64,000 nucleotides of DNA from Escherichia phage EO1. The position numbers and the translations under genes were made by a program. The stretch is taken from the sequence record OQ223305.1; one strand, written 5' to 3'. The notes under the pieces are model-generated. The model saw only the letters and a program-made list of their open reading frames with translations. It was not told the origin of the DNA and ran no database searches. Below, one piece after another: positions 14,436-34,967 of the stretch (position 1 is its first letter; every line of letters starts with the position of its first letter).

Positions 14436-15638
14436 ATGAAAGTATGTATTTTTATGGCTCGAGGTCTTGAAGGTTGTGGTGTAACAAAATTCTCACTCGA
14501 GCAACGTGATTGGTTTATTAAAAATGGTCATAAAGTGACTTTGGTTTATGCTAAAGATAAATCATTTACTCGTAACTGTGCACATGATTATAAATCATTT
14601 TCAATTCCGGTTTTATTGGCAAAAGAATACGATAAAACACTTAAGCTGGTAAATGATTGTGATATTCTAATTATCAATTCAGTTCCTGCTACTTCAGTTG
14701 AAGAAGACACTATTAATAACTATAAAAAAATTATTGATAACATTAAACCTTCTGTTCGTGTTGTAGTTTATCAACATGACCATTCTTCTCTTTCTTTGCG
14801 CCGAAATTTGGGATTAGAAGAAACTGTTCGTCGAGCTGATGTTATTTTTAGCCATTCTGATAATGGTGATTTTAATAAAGTTCTGATGAAAGAGTGGTAT
14901 CCAGAAACTGTTTCTCTGTTTGATGATATTGAAGAAGCACCGACCGTATATAACTTTCAGCCTCCTATGGATATTGCGAAGGTTCGGTCAACTTACTGGA
15001 AAGATGTTTCTGAAATTAACATGAATATCAACCGTTGGATTGGTCGTACGACTACATGGAAAGGTTTTTATCAGATGTTTGATTTTCACGAAAAACATCT
15101 TAAACCTGCAGGACTAAGTACTATTATGGAAGGTCTGGAACGTTCTCCAGCATTCATTCCTATTAAAGAAAAAGGAATTCCATATGAGTATTATCGTCTT
15201 CATCAAGTAGACCAAATTAAAATTGCTCCTAATTTGCCAACGCAAATTCTCGACCGTTATGTAAATAGCGAAATGCTTGAGCGCATGAGTAAATCCGGAT
15301 TTGGTTATCAGCTGAGTAAATTAGATAAAAAATATCTACAGCGTTCTTTAGAATACACTCATCTCGAGCTTGGTGCATGCGGAACAATTCCAGTATTTTG
15401 GAAATCTACTGGCGAAAATTTAAAATTCCGTGTTGATAATACTCCTTTGACCTCGCATGATAGCGGTATCATTTGGTTTGATGAAAATGATATGGAATCA
15501 ACATTTGAACGTATTAAAGAACTGTCATCTGACCGAGCTCTTTATGACCGTGAACGTGAAAAAGCTTATGAATTTTTGTATCAGCATCAAGATTCAAGCT
15601 TCTGCTTTAAAGAACAGTTTGACATTATTACAAAATAA
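14436..15638 (+). CDS. a-gt: DNA alpha-glucosyltransferase (hmC glucosylation), 400 aa
   Basis: 400 aa; sequence closely resembles T4 alpha-gt as recalled (…CIFMARGLEGCGVTKFSLEQRDWFIKNGH…); flanked by terminators. Confidence 0.8.
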   Translation: MKVCIFMARGLEGCGVTKFSLEQRDWFIKNGHKVTLVYAKDKSFTRNCAHDYKSFSIPVLLAKEYDKTLKLVNDCDILIINSVPATSVEEDTINNYKKIIDNIKPSVRVVVYQHDHSSLSLRRNLGLEETVRRADVIFSHSDNGDFNKVLMKEWYPETVSLFDDIEEAPTVYNFQPPMDIAKVRSTYWKDVSEINMNINRWIGRTTTWKGFYQMFDFHEKHLKPAGLSTIMEGLERSPAFIPIKEKGIPYEYYRLHQVDQIKIAPNLPTQILDRYVNSEMLERMSKSGFGYQLSKLDKKYLQRSLEYTHLELGACGTIPVFWKSTGENLKFRVDNTPLTSHDSGIIWFDENDMESTFERIKELSSDRALYDREREKAYEFLYQHQDSSFCFKEQFDIITK

Positions 15639-22970: not shown

Positions 22971-25667
22971 ATGAAAGAATTTTATATCTCTATTGAAACA
23001 GTCGGAAATAACATTGTTGAACGTTATATTGATGAAAACGGAAAGGAACGTACTCGTGAAGTAGAATATCTTCCAACTATGTTTAGGCATTGTAAGGAAG
23101 AGTCAAAATACAAAGACATCTATGGTAAAAATTGTGCTCCTCAAAAATTTCCATCAATGAAAGATGCTCGAGATTGGATGAAACGAATGGAAGACATCGG
23201 TCTCGAAGCTCTCGGTATGAACGATTTTAAACTCGCTTATATCAGTGATACATATGGTTCAGAAATTGTTTATGACCGAAAATTTGTTCGTGTAGCTAAC
23301 TGTGACATTGAGGTTACTGGTGATAAATTTCCTGACCCAATGAAAGCTGAATATGAAATTGATGCTATCACTCATTACGATTCAATTGACGATCGTTTTT
23401 ATGTTTTCGACCTTTTGAATTCAATGTATGGTTCAGTATCAAAATGGGATGCAAAGTTAGCTGCTAAGCTTGACTGTGAAGGTGGTGATGAAGTTCCTCA
23501 AGAAATTCTTGACCGAGTAATTTATATGCCATTCGATAATGAGCGTGATATGCTCATGGAATATATTAATCTTTGGGAACAGAAACGACCTGCTATTTTT
23601 ACCGGTTGGAATATTGAGGGATTTGACGTTCCGTATATCATGAATCGCGTTAAAATGGTTCTCGGTGAACGTAGTATGAAACGCTTCTCTCCAATCGGTC
23701 GAGTAAAATCTAAATTAATTCAAAATATGTACGGTAGCAAAGAAATTTATTCTATTGATGGCGTATCTATTCTTGATTATTTAGATTTGTACAAGAAATT
23801 CGCTTTTACTAATTTGCCGTCATTCTCTTTGGAATCAGTTGCTCAACATGAAACCAAAAAAGGTAAATTACCATACGACGGTCCTATTAATAAACTTCGT
23901 GAGACTAATCATCAACGATACATTAGTTATAACATCATTGACGTAGAATCAGTTCAAGCAATTGATAAAATTCGCGGGTTTATCGATCTAGTTTTAAGTA
24001 TGTCTTATTACGCTAAAATGCCTTTTTCCGGTGTAATGAGTCCTATTAAAACTTGGGATGCTATTATTTTTAACTCATTGAAAGGTGAACATAAGGTTAT
24101 TCCTCAACAAGGTTCGCACGTTAAACAGAGTTTTCCGGGTGCATTTGTATTTGAACCTAAACCAATTGCTCGTCGATATATTATGAGTTTTGACTTGACG
24201 TCTCTGTATCCGAGCATTATTCGTCAGGTTAACATTAGTCCTGAAACTATTCGTGGTCAGTTTAAAGTTCATCCAATTCATGAATATATCGCAGGAACAG
24301 CTCCTAAACCGAGTGATGAATATTCTTGTTCTCCGAATGGATGGATGTATGATAAGCATCAAGAAGGTATCATTCCAAAGGAAATCGCTAAAGTATTTTT
24401 CCAGCGTAAAGACTGGAAAAAGAAAATGTTCGCTGAAGAAATGAATGCCGAAGCTATTAAAAAGATTATTATGAAAGGCGCAGGGTCTTGTTCAACTAAA
24501 CCTGAAGTTGAACGATATGTTAAGTTCAGTGATGATTTCTTAAATGAACTATCGAATTATACTGAATCTGTTCTCAATAGTTTGATTGAAGAATGTGAAA
24601 AAGCAGCTACACTTGCTAATACAAATCAGCTGAACCGTAAAATTCTTATTAACAGTCTTTATGGTGCTCTTGGTAATATTCATTTCCGTTACTATGATTT
24701 GCGAAATGCTACTGCTATCACAATTTTCGGCCAAGTTGGTATTCAGTGGATTGCTCGTAAAATTAATGAATACCTGAATAAGGTGTGTGGAACTAATGGC
24801 GAAGATTTCATCGCAGCAGGTGATACTGATTCGGTATATGTTTGTGTAGATAAAGTTATTGAAAAAGTAGGTCTTGACCGCTTTAAAGAACAAAATGATT
24901 TAGTTGAATTCATGAATCAGTTCGGTAAGAAAAAGATGGAACCTATGATTGATGTTGCATATCGTGAGTTATGTGATTATATGAATAACCGCGAGCATCT
25001 GATGCATATGGACCGTGAAGCTATTTCTTGTCCTCCGCTCGGTTCAAAGGGTGTTGGTGGATTTTGGAAAGCGAAAAAACGTTATGCTCTGAACGTTTAT
25101 GATATGGAAGATAAGCGATTTGCTGAACCGCATCTAAAAATCATGGGTATGGAAACTCAGCAAAGTTCAACACCAAAAGCAGTACAAGAAGCTCTTGAAG
25201 AAAGTATTCGTCGTATTCTTCAGGAAGGTGAAGAGTCTGTCCAAGAATATTACAAGAACTTCGAGAAAGAATATCGTCAACTTGACTATAAAGTTATTGC
25301 TGAAGTAAAAACTGCGAACGATATAGCGAAATATGATGATAAAGGTTGGCCAGGGTTTAAATGCCCGTTCCATATTCGCGGTGTGCTAACTTATCGTCGA
25401 GCTGTTAGCGGTCTGGGTGTAGCTCCAATTTTGGATGGAAATAAAGTAATGGTTCTTCCATTACGTGAAGGAAATCCATTTGGCGACAAGTGCATTGCTT
25501 GGCCGTCGGGTACGGAACTTCCAAAAGAAATTCGTTCTGATGTACTGTCTTGGATTGACTACTCAACTTTGTTCCAAAAATCGTTTGTTAAACCGCTTGC
25601 GGGCATGTGTGAATCGGCTGGTATGGACTATGAAGAAAAAGCTTCGTTAGACTTCCTGTTTGGCTGA
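22971..25667 (+). CDS. 43: DNA polymerase gp43 (family B), 898 aa
   Basis: 898 aa; exonuclease and polymerase motifs (DIE, YGDTDS); uninterrupted. Confidence 0.95.
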   Translation: MKEFYISIETVGNNIVERYIDENGKERTREVEYLPTMFRHCKEESKYKDIYGKNCAPQKFPSMKDARDWMKRMEDIGLEALGMNDFKLAYISDTYGSEIVYDRKFVRVANCDIEVTGDKFPDPMKAEYEIDAITHYDSIDDRFYVFDLLNSMYGSVSKWDAKLAAKLDCEGGDEVPQEILDRVIYMPFDNERDMLMEYINLWEQKRPAIFTGWNIEGFDVPYIMNRVKMVLGERSMKRFSPIGRVKSKLIQNMYGSKEIYSIDGVSILDYLDLYKKFAFTNLPSFSLESVAQHETKKGKLPYDGPINKLRETNHQRYISYNIIDVESVQAIDKIRGFIDLVLSMSYYAKMPFSGVMSPIKTWDAIIFNSLKGEHKVIPQQGSHVKQSFPGAFVFEPKPIARRYIMSFDLTSLYPSIIRQVNISPETIRGQFKVHPIHEYIAGTAPKPSDEYSCSPNGWMYDKHQEGIIPKEIAKVFFQRKDWKKKMFAEEMNAEAIKKIIMKGAGSCSTKPEVERYVKFSDDFLNELSNYTESVLNSLIEECEKAATLANTNQLNRKILINSLYGALGNIHFRYYDLRNATAITIFGQVGIQWIARKINEYLNKVCGTNGEDFIAAGDTDSVYVCVDKVIEKVGLDRFKEQNDLVEFMNQFGKKKMEPMIDVAYRELCDYMNNREHLMHMDREAISCPPLGSKGVGGFWKAKKRYALNVYDMEDKRFAEPHLKIMGMETQQSSTPKAVQEALEESIRRILQEGEESVQEYYKNFEKEYRQLDYKVIAEVKTANDIAKYDDKGWPGFKCPFHIRGVLTYRRAVSGLGVAPILDGNKVMVLPLREGNPFGDKCIAWPSGTELPKEIRSDVLSWIDYSTLFQKSFVKPLAGMCESAGMDYEEKASLDFLFG

Positions 25668-25680
25668 TAGAATAAATCTA

Positions 25681-25701
25681 GGGACCTCCAGGTCCCTTTT
25701 T
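25681..25701 (+). terminator. rho-independent terminator after gene 43
   Basis: GGGACCTCCAGGTCCC 25681-25696 followed by TTTTT. Confidence 0.8.
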
Positions 25702-25783
25702 CATACAAGTAATATAAATCTATACTTATGAAAAACAGATGATTCTGGACATTTAGAATTCCCTAAAAAATTTTCACAAAACT

Positions 25784-25815
25784 GTTTACAAGAATGTTCT
25801 TCCATGGTACTATAC
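25784..25815 (+). promoter_or_regulatory. early promoter cassette with conserved 32-bp core
   Basis: GTTTAC 25784-25789; core GGTACTATACAACTATCAACTACTGATACGGA at 25806-25837. Confidence 0.65.
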
Positions 25816-25850
25816 AACTATCAACTACTGATACGGATTTGGATAATAAA

Positions 25851-26087
25851 ATGAAAATTGTTATGGGTTGCTTAGCAGTTTGTTTAGTTGCATTAGCAGC
25901 AGTTCCATTTGTTAGTGTTGAAAATGATACTCAACCTGTGATTGAATCTAGCACTGTTATTCACACTAATGGTAAAATATCAGTTAAAATTGATGATAAT
26001 CTTCATGTGAATACAAATGGATCTTTAGGTGTGCAAATGGGTAATACCTGCATAAGCACTACTGGAGTAATTACTACTTGCATTTGA
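25851..26087 (+). CDS. hypothetical secreted small protein (78 aa)
   Basis: ATG 25851 after promoter core and GGAT; N-terminal signal-like segment MKIVMGCLAVCLVALAAVPFVSV. Confidence 0.45.
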   Translation: MKIVMGCLAVCLVALAAVPFVSVENDTQPVIESSTVIHTNGKISVKIDDNLHVNTNGSLGVQMGNTCISTTGVITTCI

Positions 26088-26097
26088 GGAAATTATT

Positions 26098-26478
26098 ATG
26101 AAAATCGCTATTTTGGTTATTGCATTAGGTCTTACTGGTTGTGTGGCTCAAGGACCGGTAGTAAATCAGTCTGATGCAGGAAAAATTGTAAACTGTTCAA
26201 GCAAGTTTTATAATCCTAATGTCAAGTGTTATAAAGAAGCTCCAAAGCAAACAGTCGAACAAATGCAGGCGAATTTTGACGAAGCTATTCGTCCAGATGA
26301 ATCTGCTCAAGCATATCGTAATTCGGATGTAATTACACGCGAAGAAAAAATTGAAAACTACTGCGCCGAGCTTTGGGCAAATTGGGCTAATAATTACCAA
26401 TGGCGTACCGGTAAAAATGCTCCGATGGAGTATGTAGTGAATTCTTATAATTCATGCGTAAAAAATTTGACTAAGTGA
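26098..26478 (+). CDS. hypothetical lipoprotein (126 aa)
   Basis: Signal peptide with lipobox-like LTGC (MKIAILVIALGLTGCVAQG); adjacent to imm. Confidence 0.5.
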   Translation: MKIAILVIALGLTGCVAQGPVVNQSDAGKIVNCSSKFYNPNVKCYKEAPKQTVEQMQANFDEAIRPDESAQAYRNSDVITREEKIENYCAELWANWANNYQWRTGKNAPMEYVVNSYNSCVKNLTK

Positions 26479-26485
26479 GGAAAAC

Positions 26486-26737
26486 ATGGAAACTTTAGTA
26501 GCAGGTTCAATTTTTATGGTTTTAGTTTCAGGTGTGTTGGCTATTATTATATACATGCTTCCATGGTTTATCGCCTTGATGCGTGGGTCAAAATCGACAG
26601 TAGGAATCTTTTTCACATCTTTACTGTTTAACTGGTCAATTATTGGTTGGTTTATTACATTTATTTGGTCAATTGCGGGTGAAACTAAAAAGTCTGCACA
26701 ACCAAATCAGGTAATTATCATCAGAGAGAAGGAATGA
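26486..26737 (+). CDS. imm: superinfection immunity protein Imm (83 aa membrane protein)
   Basis: 83 aa, two hydrophobic helices, located between 43 and 42 as in T4. Confidence 0.7.
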   Translation: METLVAGSIFMVLVSGVLAIIIYMLPWFIALMRGSKSTVGIFFTSLLFNWSIIGWFITFIWSIAGETKKSAQPNQVIIIREKE

Positions 26738-26883
26738 AAAGCAAAATTATAGCAGTGTTGCTTTTAATCTTGATGATTATAATAAGTATATACTATAGTG
26801 TAACGGTTCCTCTTATGATTCCAACTATTATTTTAGGTTGGGGTTTATTACTGTTACAAGTTAAATATGAATGTATCAATTGA
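26734..26883 (+). CDS. hypothetical small membrane protein (49 aa)
   Basis: ATG overlaps the imm stop (ATGA); hydrophobic. Confidence 0.35.
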   Translation: MKSKIIAVLLLILMIIISIYYSVTVPLMIPTIILGWGLLLLQVKYECIN

Positions 26884-26890
26884 GGTTTAA

Positions 26891-27631
26891 ATGATTAGTG
26901 ACTCTATGACAGTTGAAGAAATCCGTCTTCATTTGGGGCTTGCATTAAAAGAAAAAGATTTCGTAGTTGATAAAACCGGTGTTAAAACTATTGAAATTAT
27001 TGGCGCATCATTTGTAGCAGATGAACCGTTTATTTTTGGCGCTCTTAATGATGAATACATTCAGCGTGAACTTGAATGGTATAAATCTAAGAGCTTGTTT
27101 GTTAAAGATATTCCAGGTGAAACACCAAAGATTTGGCAGCAGGTAGCATCTTCTAAAGGCGAAATTAACTCGAATTATGGTTGGGCTATTTGGTCAGAAG
27201 ATAACTATGCCCAGTATGATATGTGTTTAGCTGAACTTGGTCAAAATCCTGATTCTCGGCGTGGTATCATGATTTATACTCGTCCATCCATGCAATTTGA
27301 CTACAATAAAGATGGTATGTCAGATTTCATGTGTACTAATACAGTACAGTACCTGATTCGTGATAAGAAAGTCAATGCGGTTGTTAGCATGAGAAGCAAT
27401 GATTGCTGGGCAGGCTATCGTAATGATTATGCTTGGCAAAAATACGTACTAGATAAATTAGTATCTGATTTGAATGCAGGCGACCCATCGCGGCAATATA
27501 AAGCAGGTTCTATTATATGGAACGTTGGAAGTCTTCATGTGTACGAAAATCAGTTTTATTTAGTTGACCATTGGTGGAATACTGGCGAAACTCATATTGT
27601 GAAAAAAGACTATAAAGGTGAGTGGAAATGA
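26891..27631 (+). CDS. 42: dCMP hydroxymethylase gp42 (246 aa)
   Basis: 246 aa; thymidylate-synthase-like sequence matching T4 gp42 as recalled (MISDSMTVEEIRLHLGLALKEKDF…). Confidence 0.9.
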   Translation: MISDSMTVEEIRLHLGLALKEKDFVVDKTGVKTIEIIGASFVADEPFIFGALNDEYIQRELEWYKSKSLFVKDIPGETPKIWQQVASSKGEINSNYGWAIWSEDNYAQYDMCLAELGQNPDSRRGIMIYTRPSMQFDYNKDGMSDFMCTNTVQYLIRDKKVNAVVSMRSNDCWAGYRNDYAWQKYVLDKLVSDLNAGDPSRQYKAGSIIWNVGSLHVYENQFYLVDHWWNTGETHIVKKDYKGEWK

Positions 27632-28470
27632 TTCAATTCGTAATTCCAAGTTATCAGCGTGTCGGGGCAGTTTCTGCCCTTGATATGTTTCCGACTAATT
27701 ATGAACCCCATATTGTAGTGCGTGAACATGAAGAAAAAGCTTATTATGATGCCTATGGGTCTAGAGCTAAAATTATAACTATTCCTGACGATGTAAATGG
27801 AATTGCTGGTACTCGTAAAGCAATTACTGATATGTATGCAGGTCAACGAATCTGGATGATTGACGATGATACTACTATTCGTATGAGTTCAATGCGAAAA
27901 AGAGATGACCGTCGTTGTGTAGATAAAGTCAATCAATTAACCCGTGAACAGTTCTATGAATTGATTCAATACGTCGAAGATGCCATGGATTGCGGGTATT
28001 ATCATGGCCATGCTCGTCTACCTATTTTTAAAATTACTTCATCTTGGGGTAATTATCGTGAAAATTCATATGGATTCACGAATACATGGTATGACCTCGG
28101 AAAACTTACGACAGAACAAATTGGGTATGGAAAAATTGATTTATGCGAAGATATGTATGCATTTCTCAATTTAATTAATCAAGGTTATCCGCATTTGGCC
28201 TTGTTCAAATATCTGGTTGTATCTGGAAAAGCACAAGCTCCTGGCGGGTGTAGTTCAATTCGTAGTAATTCTAAACATAATAGAGCGCTTGAGCAAATCA
28301 ATAGAGAGTTTCCAGAGCAAGCTCGTTGGAAAACGTCGAATATTGAAAAACGAAAATCGTTGGGTGAAGAAGACGAGCCATTAAAGGTTCTTCGTATGTG
28401 TGTTTCGCGCAAAGAAAAATCAGAAGCATTTCATAAGTTTAATGCTATTCATCCGATAGCAGTTGATTAA
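27628..28470 (+). CDS. glycosyltransferase with DxD (GT-A-like) motif at the beta-gt locus; possible beta-alpha-glucosyl transferase
   Basis: ATG 27628 overlaps the gp42 stop; motif IWMIDDDTTI; sequence does not resemble T4 beta-gt as recalled. Confidence 0.55.
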   Translation: MIQFVIPSYQRVGAVSALDMFPTNYEPHIVVREHEEKAYYDAYGSRAKIITIPDDVNGIAGTRKAITDMYAGQRIWMIDDDTTIRMSSMRKRDDRRCVDKVNQLTREQFYELIQYVEDAMDCGYYHGHARLPIFKITSSWGNYRENSYGFTNTWYDLGKLTTEQIGYGKIDLCEDMYAFLNLINQGYPHLALFKYLVVSGKAQAPGGCSSIRSNSKHNRALEQINREFPEQARWKTSNIEKRKSLGEEDEPLKVLRMCVSRKEKSEAFHKFNAIHPIAVD

Positions 28471-28525
28471 TGCCTAAATTTATTGTGTTATAATTACTCT
28501 ATCTTTAACCAGTGAGGAAAATATA

Positions 28526-28582
28526 ATGATGCCTATGGAAAAAATGAATGTCTATTGTAGATTTAAAATCCCGTTTGATTAA
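28526..28582 (+). CDS. upstream ORF (18 codons) overlapping the uvsX start
   Basis: ATG 28526 sits 8 nt after GAGGAA, whereas the uvsX ATG (28548) has no good SD; uORF MMPMEKMNVYCRFKIPFD ends 34 nt into uvsX in another frame. Confidence 0.3.
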   Translation: MMPMEKMNVYCRFKIPFD

Positions 28583-29729
28583 AGCTTCCACTTCTAAAAT
28601 GACTGCTGAACTGACTACATCTAAATTCTTTAATGAAAAGGATGTAATCCGTACAAAAATTCCAATGCTGAATATTGCTATTTCTGGTGCGATTGATGGC
28701 GGCATGCAGTCTGGTTTAACTATTTTTGCAGGTCCTTCTAAACACTTTAAATCAAATATGTCTTTGACTATGGTTGCGGCATATTTGAACAAATATCCTG
28801 ACGCGGTTTGTCTATTCTATGATAGCGAATTTGGTATTACTCCAGCTTATTTGCGATCCATGGGAGTTGACCCGGAACGAGTAATTCATACGCCAATCCA
28901 GTCAGTTGAACAGCTGAAAATTGATATGGTGAACCAGCTTGAAGCTATTGAGCGGGGTGAAAAAGTTATTGTATTCATCGACTCAATTGGTAATATGGCT
29001 TCTAAGAAAGAAACGGAAGATGCCTTGAATGAAAAATCTGTGGCAGATATGACTCGTGCTAAATCACTGAAGTCATTATTCCGTATTGTTACTCCTTACT
29101 TTAGCATTAAAAATATTCCATGTGTTGCGGTTAACCATACAATTGAAACAATTGAAATGTTTAGTAAAACCGTGATGACAGGCGGTACAGGCGTAATGTA
29201 TTCGGCTGATACTGTATTCATTATCGGTAAACGTCAAATTAAAGATGGTTCTGATCTTCAGGGGTATCAATTTGTTCTAAATGTAGAAAAATCTCGTACC
29301 GTTAAAGAAAAAAGTAAATTCTTTATTGATGTTAAATTTGACGGTGGTATCGATCCTTATTCTGGATTGTTAGATATGGCTCTAGAATTAGGATTTGTAG
29401 TAAAACCTAAGAATGGTTGGTATGCTCGTGAATTTCTTGACGAAGAAACCGGCGAGATGATTCGCGAAGAAAAATCTTGGCGTGCAAAAGATACTAACTG
29501 CACTACATTCTGGGGTCCTTTATTTAAGCATCAACCATTCCGAGATGCTATTAAACGTGCTTACCAGTTAGGTGCTATTGATAGTAATGAAATTGTTGAA
29601 GCTGAAGTTGATGAATTGATTAACTCAAAGGTTGAAAAATTTAAATCTCCAGAAAGTAAAAGTAAATCAGCAGCTGATTTAGAAACTGACCTCGAACAGT
29701 TAAGTGATATGGAAGAATTTAATGAGTAA
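28548..29729 (+). CDS. uvsX: recombinase UvsX (RecA-like), 393 aa
   Basis: Near-identical to T4 UvsX as recalled (…DLKSRLIKASTSK…, GPSKHFKSN Walker A). Confidence 0.9.
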   Translation: MSIVDLKSRLIKASTSKMTAELTTSKFFNEKDVIRTKIPMLNIAISGAIDGGMQSGLTIFAGPSKHFKSNMSLTMVAAYLNKYPDAVCLFYDSEFGITPAYLRSMGVDPERVIHTPIQSVEQLKIDMVNQLEAIERGEKVIVFIDSIGNMASKKETEDALNEKSVADMTRAKSLKSLFRIVTPYFSIKNIPCVAVNHTIETIEMFSKTVMTGGTGVMYSADTVFIIGKRQIKDGSDLQGYQFVLNVEKSRTVKEKSKFFIDVKFDGGIDPYSGLLDMALELGFVVKPKNGWYAREFLDEETGEMIREEKSWRAKDTNCTTFWGPLFKHQPFRDAIKRAYQLGAIDSNEIVEAEVDELINSKVEKFKSPESKSKSAADLETDLEQLSDMEEFNE

Positions 29730-33149: not shown

Positions 33150-34178
33150 ATGTCATCAATACCTTGGATTGATAATGAGTTTGCATACCGTGCATTGGCT
33201 CATTTACCTAAATTCGCACAAGTAAATAATAGTTCAACTTTTAAATTACGGTTTAGATGTCCTGTTTGTGGAGATTCAAAAACCGACCAAAATAAAGCCC
33301 GTGGATGGTATTATGGCGATAATAATGAAGGAAATATTCATTGTTATAATTGCAACTATCATGCACCAATCGGAATATATTTAAAGGAGTTTGAACCCGA
33401 TTTATATCGTGAGTATATCTTTGAAATAAGAAAAGAAAAAGGTAAAAGTCGTCCAGTAGAAAAACCTAAAGAACTTCCTAAACAACCTGAGAAGAAAATA
33501 ATTAAATCTCTTCCGTCATGTATTAGATTAGATAAACTGGCGGAAGACCATCCAATTATAAAATATGTAAAAGCTCGTTGTATTCCAAAGGATAAATGGA
33601 AATATCTTTGGTTTACAACCGAATGGCCTAAATTAGTTAATAGCATAGCACCGGGAACATACAAAAAGGAAATTTCTGAGCCTCGTCTTGTTATTCCAAT
33701 TTATAATGCTAATGGAAAAGCTGAGTCTTTTCAAGGACGTGCATTAAAGAAAGATGCTCCTCAAAAATATATCACCATTAAAGCTTATCCTGAGGCAACA
33801 AAAATTTACGGTGTTGAACGAGTTAAAGATGGCGATGTATATGTTCTAGAAGGACCTATAGATTCACTTTTTATTGAAAATGGTATAGCTATTACGGGTG
33901 GTCAATTAGACCTAGAAGTTGTTCCATTTAAAGATAGGCGTGTGTGGGTCTTAGATAATGAACCTCGTCATCCTGACACTATTAAGCGAATGACTAAATT
34001 AGTTGATGCAGGAGAAAGGGTTATGTTTTGGGATAAATCTCCCTGGAAATCAAAAGATGTTAATGATATGATTAGAAAGGAAGGTGCAACCCCTGAACAA
34101 ATTATGGAATATATGAAAAATAATATTGCCCAGGGATTGATGGCTAAAATGCGGCTATCTAAATATGCTAAGATTTAA
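33150..34178 (+). CDS. 61: DNA primase gp61 (342 aa)
   Basis: 342 aa; N-terminal zinc-binding cysteines (CPVCGDS...CYNC) and TOPRIM region. Confidence 0.9.
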   Translation: MSSIPWIDNEFAYRALAHLPKFAQVNNSSTFKLRFRCPVCGDSKTDQNKARGWYYGDNNEGNIHCYNCNYHAPIGIYLKEFEPDLYREYIFEIRKEKGKSRPVEKPKELPKQPEKKIIKSLPSCIRLDKLAEDHPIIKYVKARCIPKDKWKYLWFTTEWPKLVNSIAPGTYKKEISEPRLVIPIYNANGKAESFQGRALKKDAPQKYITIKAYPEATKIYGVERVKDGDVYVLEGPIDSLFIENGIAITGGQLDLEVVPFKDRRVWVLDNEPRHPDTIKRMTKLVDAGERVMFWDKSPWKSKDVNDMIRKEGATPEQIMEYMKNNIAQGLMAKMRLSKYAKI

Positions 34179-34375
34179 ATTAACCCAACTAAAGCAAATG
34201 CTAAATCTACAAATGTATCAAGAGTAACTACTGGAATATTAATACCATGCGCAATTGCAACAGGTGATAGAATAAAGTTCCAGAGTAAAATTCCTACCAT
34301 AGCAGAAATAGTAAAAGCTATACGTTTTTTATTACCTTTTATGGCATTAACAAGTGCCATTAATTTTTGTACCAT
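34175..34375 (-). CDS. hypothetical small membrane protein on the opposite strand (66 aa)
   Basis: Minus-strand ORF with strong SD (GGAGG, 4 nt spacer) and T4-like codon usage; two hydrophobic segments; stop overlaps the gene 61 stop. Confidence 0.4.
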   Translation of the reverse strand: MVQKLMALVNAIKGNKKRIAFTISAMVGILLWNFILSPVAIAHGINIPVVTLDTFVDLAFALVGLI

Positions 34376-34388
34376 ATGTCCTCCTTAT

Positions 34389-34412
34389 TGCTTTATATAT
34401 TTATTGTATAAT
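34389..34412 (+). promoter_or_regulatory. middle (MotA-dependent) promoter candidate for gene 56
   Basis: TGCTTTA at 34389-34395, 11-bp spacer, TATAAT at 34407-34412. Confidence 0.5.
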
Positions 34413-34448
34413 TAATCTACTAACCCATGAATTGAAAGGAAAAATAAC

Positions 34449-34967
34449 ATGCCACATTTCAACGAATGTAGTCAACTGATCGAAGGCGCTGATAAAGCTC
34501 AAAATGAATATTGGGATATTCTCGGTGATGAAAAAGACCCGCTGCAGGTAATGCTTGACATGCAGAAATCTCTGCAAATTCGTTTAGCTAAAGATAAACC
34601 TGAATATAATCGTCATCCTGATGACTTGGCTACTGCCGGTGAAGTTGTTGATTGGTTGCGTAATCAGAAAGATTATATTGACGATGAATTCCGTGAACTT
34701 CTGACTTCTCTTGGTGGTATGAGTAATGGTGAAAAAGACGCATCTGCTGTATGGAAACCTTGGAAGTCGCAGCATGGTGAGCGTCGTGAAACTCTGATTA
34801 CTGATTTGTCTCCGCAAGACCAGTTAGAAATTAAATTTGAAATGATTGATATTCTTCATTTCGTTCTGAATATGTTCCAGGGTCTTGGTCTTACAGCTGA
34901 AGAAATCTTTAAACTTTATTACCTGAAAAATGCTGAAAATTTCGCACGTCAGGACCGAGGTTATTAA
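34449..34967 (+). CDS. 56: dCTPase/dUTPase gp56 (MazG-like), 172 aa
   Basis: 172 aa; position after 61 and a MotA-box promoter upstream. Confidence 0.7.
   Translation: MPHFNECSQLIEGADKAQNEYWDILGDEKDPLQVMLDMQKSLQIRLAKDKPEYNRHPDDLATAGEVVDWLRNQKDYIDDEFRELLTSLGGMSNGEKDASAVWKPWKSQHGERRETLITDLSPQDQLEIKFEMIDILHFVLNMFQGLGLTAEEIFKLYYLKNAENFARQDRGY

Follow-up and report, generated by a model that had tools for sequence, protein, structure and literature searches.

A T2/T6-type ba-gt gene at the T4 beta-gt locus of Escherichia phage EO1 and the gentiobiosyl-hmC that it predicts

The open reading frame (ORF) between gene 42 and uvsX of Escherichia phage EO1 is almost certainly the Tequatrovirus ba-gt gene (ggt/TAGT, PF20691), encoding the enzyme that adds a beta-1,6-linked glucose to alpha-glucosyl-hmC and so yields gentiobiosyl-hmC. 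We analysed 64,000 nucleotides of record OQ223305.1, here called the window, and the coordinates of its features are collected in Table 1. Our identification is based on orthology, synteny, fold, motif conservation and the absence of b-gt. The chemistry of the enzyme and its knockout phenotype are taken from the literature, and the residue roles and modification ratio given for this phage are predictions.

Table 1. Features of the ba-gt locus and its pathway partners in the window, and ba-gt lesions in public T2 and T6 genomes (outside the window)
Feature	Coordinates	Strand	Evidence or remark
ba-gt / ggt / TAGT (beta-glucosyl-HMC-alpha-glucosyltransferase) CDS	27628..28470	+	ORF, PF20691, PHROG 842, T2/QOTSP identity, GT-A model
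ATGA start/stop overlap of the ba-gt ORF with gene 42	27628..27631	+	Read from sequence
R11 codon, N-terminal IPSYQR motif	27658..27660	+	Arg in 99/99 aligned family members
D79-D80-D81 DxD motif codons (GAC GAT GAT)	27862..27870	+	Only DxD in the protein
E174-D175 ED motif codons, putative catalytic base for inverting GT-A transfer	28147..28152	+	
Gene 42, dCMP hydroxymethylase (hm-dCMP precursor)	26891..27631	+	Pfam PF00303; 93% identity to T4 gp42
uvsX, downstream flank marker	28548..29729	+	Pfam PF21134 (T4_UVSX_C), PF00154 (RecA); 91% identity to T4 UvsX
a-gt, DNA alpha-glucosyltransferase	14436..15638	+	PF11440, 785 bits; 99% identity to Sf23 a-gt
Gene 56, dCTPase/dUTPase (excludes unmodified dCTP)	34449..34967	+	tblastn, 100% identity to Sf23 gp56
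T2 ba-gt, AP018813 and MH751506	L005:5286-6125 and L013:7286-8128	-	R11H, P251S
T6 ba-gt, MH550421	L012:7138-7980	-	Codon 10 amber
T6 ba-gt, AP018814	L006:5135-5974	-	DD for DDD

The ORF starts with ATG and encodes a product of 280 aa. An earlier note on this DNA had given its coordinates, length, DDD motif and flanking genes, and ORF, Pfam and identity checks found all of these correct. The ATG overlaps the TGA stop of gene 42 as ATGA, with the purine-rich AAAGGTGAG immediately 5', and the same ATGA junction is present in T2 and T6. This overlap, together with AAAGGTGAG, suggests that ba-gt is translationally coupled to gene 42. About 35 nt inside the coding sequence (27664-27680, plus strand) we observed GGGGCAGTTTCTGCCCT, a hairpin of terminator-like form with a T-rich run after it. 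The hairpin stretch is invariant among the aligned T2 and T6 records. It may be there by chance, or it may be an RNA structure that acts on translation of the coupled ba-gt.

By megablast, 474 phage records contain the gene at full length with a nucleotide identity of at least 90%. Hence, the ORF is a conserved gene and not a chance reading frame. Many of these records label it 'beta-glucosyl-HMC-alpha-glucosyltransferase', 'beta-alpha-glucosyltransferase' or 'glucosyl transferase'. We compared the syntenic gene from two T2 and two T6 records, an alignment to the T2/T6 beta-alpha-glucosyltransferase that the earlier note had proposed. The window protein is identical to both T2 proteins at 277/280 positions and to the T6 proteins at 274-275/280; to those of phages a51, QOTSP and NR1 it is identical throughout (280/280). 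The cloning of the T2/T6 genes is said to date from an original report of 1993. PHROG 842, named beta-glucosyl-HMC-alpha-glucosyltransferase, matched residues 1-275 (E = 7e-89). The sole Pfam match was PF20691 TAGT (38.4 bits, E = 1.7e-9, gathering cutoff 27.5), spanning residues 4-207 and profile positions 3-205 of 205. The modest score reflects the divergence of the T-even enzymes within PF20691, a domain that is also precomputed for the homologues found in the protein database. A scan of the protein against NCBIfam returned no family, an uninformative result for a library built around cellular proteins.

Many Tequatrovirus (T4-like) genomes match a 20-kb segment surrounding the ORF at 96-98% identity, Shigella phage Sf23 best of all. 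Gene order in the window follows the Sf23/T4 map (nrdD, a-gt, 47, 46, 45, 44, 62, regA, 43, imm, 42), and order of this type continues after gene 42 with the ba-gt ORF, uvsX, 40, 41, 61, 56, rIIA and rIIB. The position of ba-gt between uvsX and gene 42, whose product is a thymidylate-synthase-family protein (Pfam Thymidylat_synt), is common to the window, T2, T6, a51 and Sf23. The alpha-gt that the earlier note placed at 14436-15638 is real (Table 1), and at the nucleotide level it is 97.9% identical to NR1 a-gt. Across the 64-kb window, alpha-gt co-occurs with ba-gt and T4-type beta-gt does not.

Several other features of the region were recorded. In T4 a GIY-YIG homing endonuclease is encoded by segA, which lies between b-gt and uvsX; tblastn found no segA homologue in the whole window, and ba-gt and uvsX are separated by a 77-nt spacer only (28471-28547). 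The start of the spacer (28471-28494) reads TGCCTAA, 11 nt, TATAAT, which resembles middle promoters with a MotA box, T4 PuvsX for example. Scanning 25600-28700 gave 15 promoter-like sites where 14.4 were expected, and since this is the chance rate we draw no regulatory reading from the scan. Two small ORFs predicted to encode membrane proteins lie between genes 43 and 42 on the plus strand: one of 97 aa upstream of imm.1 (25794-26087) and one of 49 aa that overlaps the end of imm (26734-26883). In a51 and Sf23 neither has an annotation beyond hypothetical. In both T2 and T4, dam adjoins gene 56. With tblastn we found no homologue of the T2 Dam adenine methyltransferase at window positions 1-64000, including the stretch between genes 61 and 56 (33400-34450). 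Without dam, the window matches the Durham group of phages with the highest gentiobiosyl content, which was reported to be without a Dam-like gene.

An exhaustive HMMER search of representative sequences returned 334 relatives of ba-gt at E <= 0.001. Conservation was read from an alignment of 100 full-length relatives, the most distant of them about 20% identical. Three positions, D80, D175 and G207, do not vary in this alignment, and conservation reaches 90% or more at I6, P7, R11, R63, D79, D81, G186, G206 and R212. The AlphaFold2 model built from the same alignment (mean pLDDT 95.1, pTM 0.92) consists of one Rossmann-like alpha/beta/alpha domain, which can be superposed on GT-A enzymes of solved structure, and in it the DDD motif comes after the central strand E74-78. 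Neither the single protein nor a profile of 100 sequences had a significant match among PDB sequences. The sole suggestive hit, obtained with the profile, was sub-threshold (E = 0.5) and to the GT2 enzyme AvpGT; this alignment pairs IPxYxR, DDD and the E174-D175 segment, the last with EED of AvpGT. Motif conservation among the relatives, the confident model and the line-up of motifs with AvpGT therefore bear out the description 'GT-A-like (DxD)' in the earlier note: the model is GT-A, and D79-D80-D81 is its single DxD.

Because no family member has a solved structure, as judged by sequence search, we infer the roles of these residues, guided by what is generally known of inverting GT-A/GT2 enzymes. 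The DDD motif (79-81) is predicted to hold a divalent metal and the diphosphate of UDP. In the ED motif, the invariant D175 probably acts as catalytic base, in an inverting reaction that turns the alpha linkage of UDP-glucose into a beta linkage. R11 would have a role in binding the nucleotide sugar, by analogy with the GT2 PxYN(R/E) motif.

In the pathway that we propose, gp42 and gp56 would ensure that phage DNA is made with 5-hydroxymethylcytosine. Alpha-gt would then transfer glucose from host UDP-glucose to the hydroxymethyl group in alpha linkage, providing the acceptor for ba-gt. The latter, probably a small single-domain GT-A enzyme, would take a second glucose from UDP-glucose and join it to the first in beta-1,6 linkage, giving gentiobiosyl-hmC. 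The earlier note had predicted a T2/T6-like hmC modification, alpha-glucosyl plus a second sugar, and this is supported by the orthology of ba-gt together with the presence of alpha-gt.

The chemistry and genetics behind this pathway have been described in close relatives. The beta-glucosyl-HMC-alpha-glucosyltransferase of T2 and T6 is a PF20691 TAGT; it adds a glucosyl group to already alpha-glucosylated cytosine to form gentiobiosyl-methylcytosine, and AlphaFold3 models it as a GT-A enzyme in a sister group to GT2 (PMC13216743, NAR 2026). The common arrangement is an alpha-GT or a beta-GT paired with TAGT; alpha-GT plus beta-GT was found in only 6/753 genomes (PMC13216743). T6 delta-ba-gt contains only alpha-glucosyl-hmC, and its DNA turns into a substrate for Brig1 (PMC11078745). 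BapA, similarly, releases glucose from T6 delta-g-gt DNA but not from wild-type T6 DNA (bioRxiv 10.64898/2026.02.25.707755). Nucleosides of seven Tequatrovirus phages of the Durham Collection (Solly, TB37, QOTSP, NR1, CP, Some and EH2) were measured by HPLC/MS (PMC13390438, AEM 2026). Their DNA held about one-third 5-hmdC and about two-thirds alpha-gentiobiosyl-mdC with alpha-glucosyl-mdC at a low background level; a beta-glucosyl form was detected in none of the seven, and the TAGT position was described as syntenic with T4 beta-GT (PMC13390438).

By analogy with these phages, we expect the DNA of EO1 to contain about one-third bare hmC and about two-thirds gentiobiosyl-hmC, with little mono-alpha-glucosyl-hmC and no beta-glucosyl-hmC. 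We make this T6-like, high-gentiobiosyl prediction because the protein has consensus residues at all conserved positions, because it is identical to that of QOTSP and NR1 and because dam is absent. The ratio of mono- to di-glucosyl forms varies among close relatives (Geo, EL and BGP have a 1:2:2 pattern), so the presence of ba-gt alone does not set the exact ratio in this phage.

Perhaps ba-gt is present here but inactive or weak, leaving T2-like DNA with mostly mono-alpha-glucosyl-hmC and a few per cent gentiobiosyl? Gentiobiosyl-hmC makes up 72% in T6 and 5% in T2, with 25% unglucosylated in both, despite proteins that are 98-99% identical (PMC6024577), and the genomes of laboratory stocks show that lesions in the gene are tolerated. 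However, the ORF in the window is intact, carries the consensus at R11, DDD, D175, G206, G207 and R212, and has neither of the T2 substitutions R11H and P251S. Its protein is also the very one encoded by QOTSP and NR1, whose DNA is about two-thirds gentiobiosylated and which, like the window, have no dam homologue. We consider a weak or inactive enzyme very unlikely.

The lesions themselves deserve description. Both T2 records encode His at position 11, where Arg is found in the window, in T6, in all other compared phages and in 99/99 aligned homologues; P251S is present in both T2 records as well. In T6 record MH550421, codon 10 is changed from CAG to TAG (amber), and the CDS is annotated from M20 with a length of 261 aa. 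In T6 record AP018814, one GAT is missing from GATGATGAT, giving DD and not DDD. Differing lesions in two T6 genomes are odd for the phage that defines high gentiobiosylation. They suggest laboratory drift or sequencing artefacts. As lesions picked up separately, they may also mean that on laboratory hosts the second glucosylation can be lost without harm, or that selection even acts against it. From these sequence comparisons we propose, tentatively, that the allele of the window, QOTSP, NR1 and a51 might be the full-activity consensus, and that R11H is one possible cause of the low gentiobiosyl-hmC of T2 (about 5%) relative to T6 (about 72%).

Could the ORF instead be a functional analogue of T4 beta-gt that places a single beta-glucose directly on bare hmC? 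Such an activity would explain why it sits at the T4 b-gt locus; the earlier note had the ORF in that place, and its gp42 and UvsX neighbours (Table 1) confirm it. Several database records, moreover, carry the label 'b-gt' or 'putative beta-glucosyltransferase'. However, BLASTP of the protein against T4 beta-gt (from NC_000866) gave only noise (best E = 2.2 over 8 residues), and PF20691 was its only Pfam family, as the earlier note's remark that it does not resemble T4 beta-gt would have it. Nor did tblastn find a T4 beta-gt homologue elsewhere in the 64-kb window (best E = 1.5). The folds also differ, GT-A for the window protein against GT-B for T4 beta-gt (PMC13216743). Finally, phages with the identical protein show no beta-glucosyl-mdC and keep about one-third bare 5-hmdC (PMC13390438). 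The latter counts against a direct hmC glucosyltransferase, which would have consumed the bare fraction. An analogue of T4 beta-gt is thus highly improbable.

Hardest to credit is a GT-A transferase for some other donor or acceptor, for example the arabinose known from RB69-type phages, or an acceptor other than DNA: PF20691 is broad, and many phages have a solitary TAGT of unknown substrate without alpha- or beta-GT (PMC13216743), but the window protein shares 98-100% identity with enzymes of phages whose gentiobiosyl DNA has been measured and for which a knockout phenotype is described; the window also has alpha-gt and gp42, and its Sf23-type gene order includes no arabinosylation cluster. 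Having considered all three readings for the ORF, an analogue of beta-gt, an inactive copy and a transferase for another sugar, we reject them.

The ba-gt gene is already known: it is named in RefSeq and has been characterised biochemically and genetically in near-identical or identical form. What the earlier note found is correct but ordinary, since ba-gt stands at the T4 beta-gt site in hundreds of sequenced T4-like phages. For the window, our analysis settles only the annotation and the phenotype prediction, namely T6-like DNA with bare hmC and gentiobiosyl-hmC and no beta-glucosyl-hmC. Mature gentiobiosylated DNA is protected in vitro from the alpha-glucosyl-hmC glycosylase Brig1 (PMC11078745), and gentiobiosylation also shields DNA from BapA, a deglucosylating enzyme (bioRxiv 10.64898/2026.02.25.707755). 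Such DNA is still sensitive to GmrSD/BrxU-type restriction (PMC13390438; PMC13216743). About one-third of cytosines stay bare hmC in this modification state. The result is of use where the host range of a T4-like phage for therapy has to be predicted, and we claim no discovery.

Compared with known systems, T4 beta-glucosyltransferase (NP_049658.1; PF09198) is like the window enzyme in genomic position, UDP-glucose donor, beta linkage and hmC DNA. However, it is a GT-B protein of 351 aa, the window protein is a GT-A protein of 280 aa, and the two sequences are unrelated. T4 beta-gt acts on bare hmC, whereas ba-gt acts on alpha-glucosyl-hmC; b-gt is followed by segA, which is absent from the window. 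PF20691 TAGT (TET-associated glycosyltransferase; GT-A, close to CAZy GT2) shares the DDD, ED and GG-x4-R motifs with the window protein. Here, however, the upstream partner is a dCMP hydroxymethylase that works on nucleotides, not a TET/JBP dioxygenase that works on DNA, and glucose is added to a sugar that the DNA already carries rather than to the hydroxymethyl base. The glucosyl transferases of the Durham Collection phages QOTSP (CAJ1093119.1) and NR1 (CAD7712138.1) have the same protein and the same flanking genes as the window; their genes differ from it at about 1% of nucleotides, all synonymous, and the phages are separate isolates. The ba-gt of T2 and T6 (ggt, g-gt; T2 AYD82639.1 in MH751506; RefSeq name in Sf23 YP_010076515.1) is the same gene as the window ORF, alike in its 280 aa, its slot between gene 42 and uvsX, its ATGA overlap and its alpha-gt partner. 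There are point differences only: positions 11 and 251 are R and P in the window against H and S in T2, and the window has an intact DDD and Q10 where one T6 record has DD and the other an amber codon at position 10.
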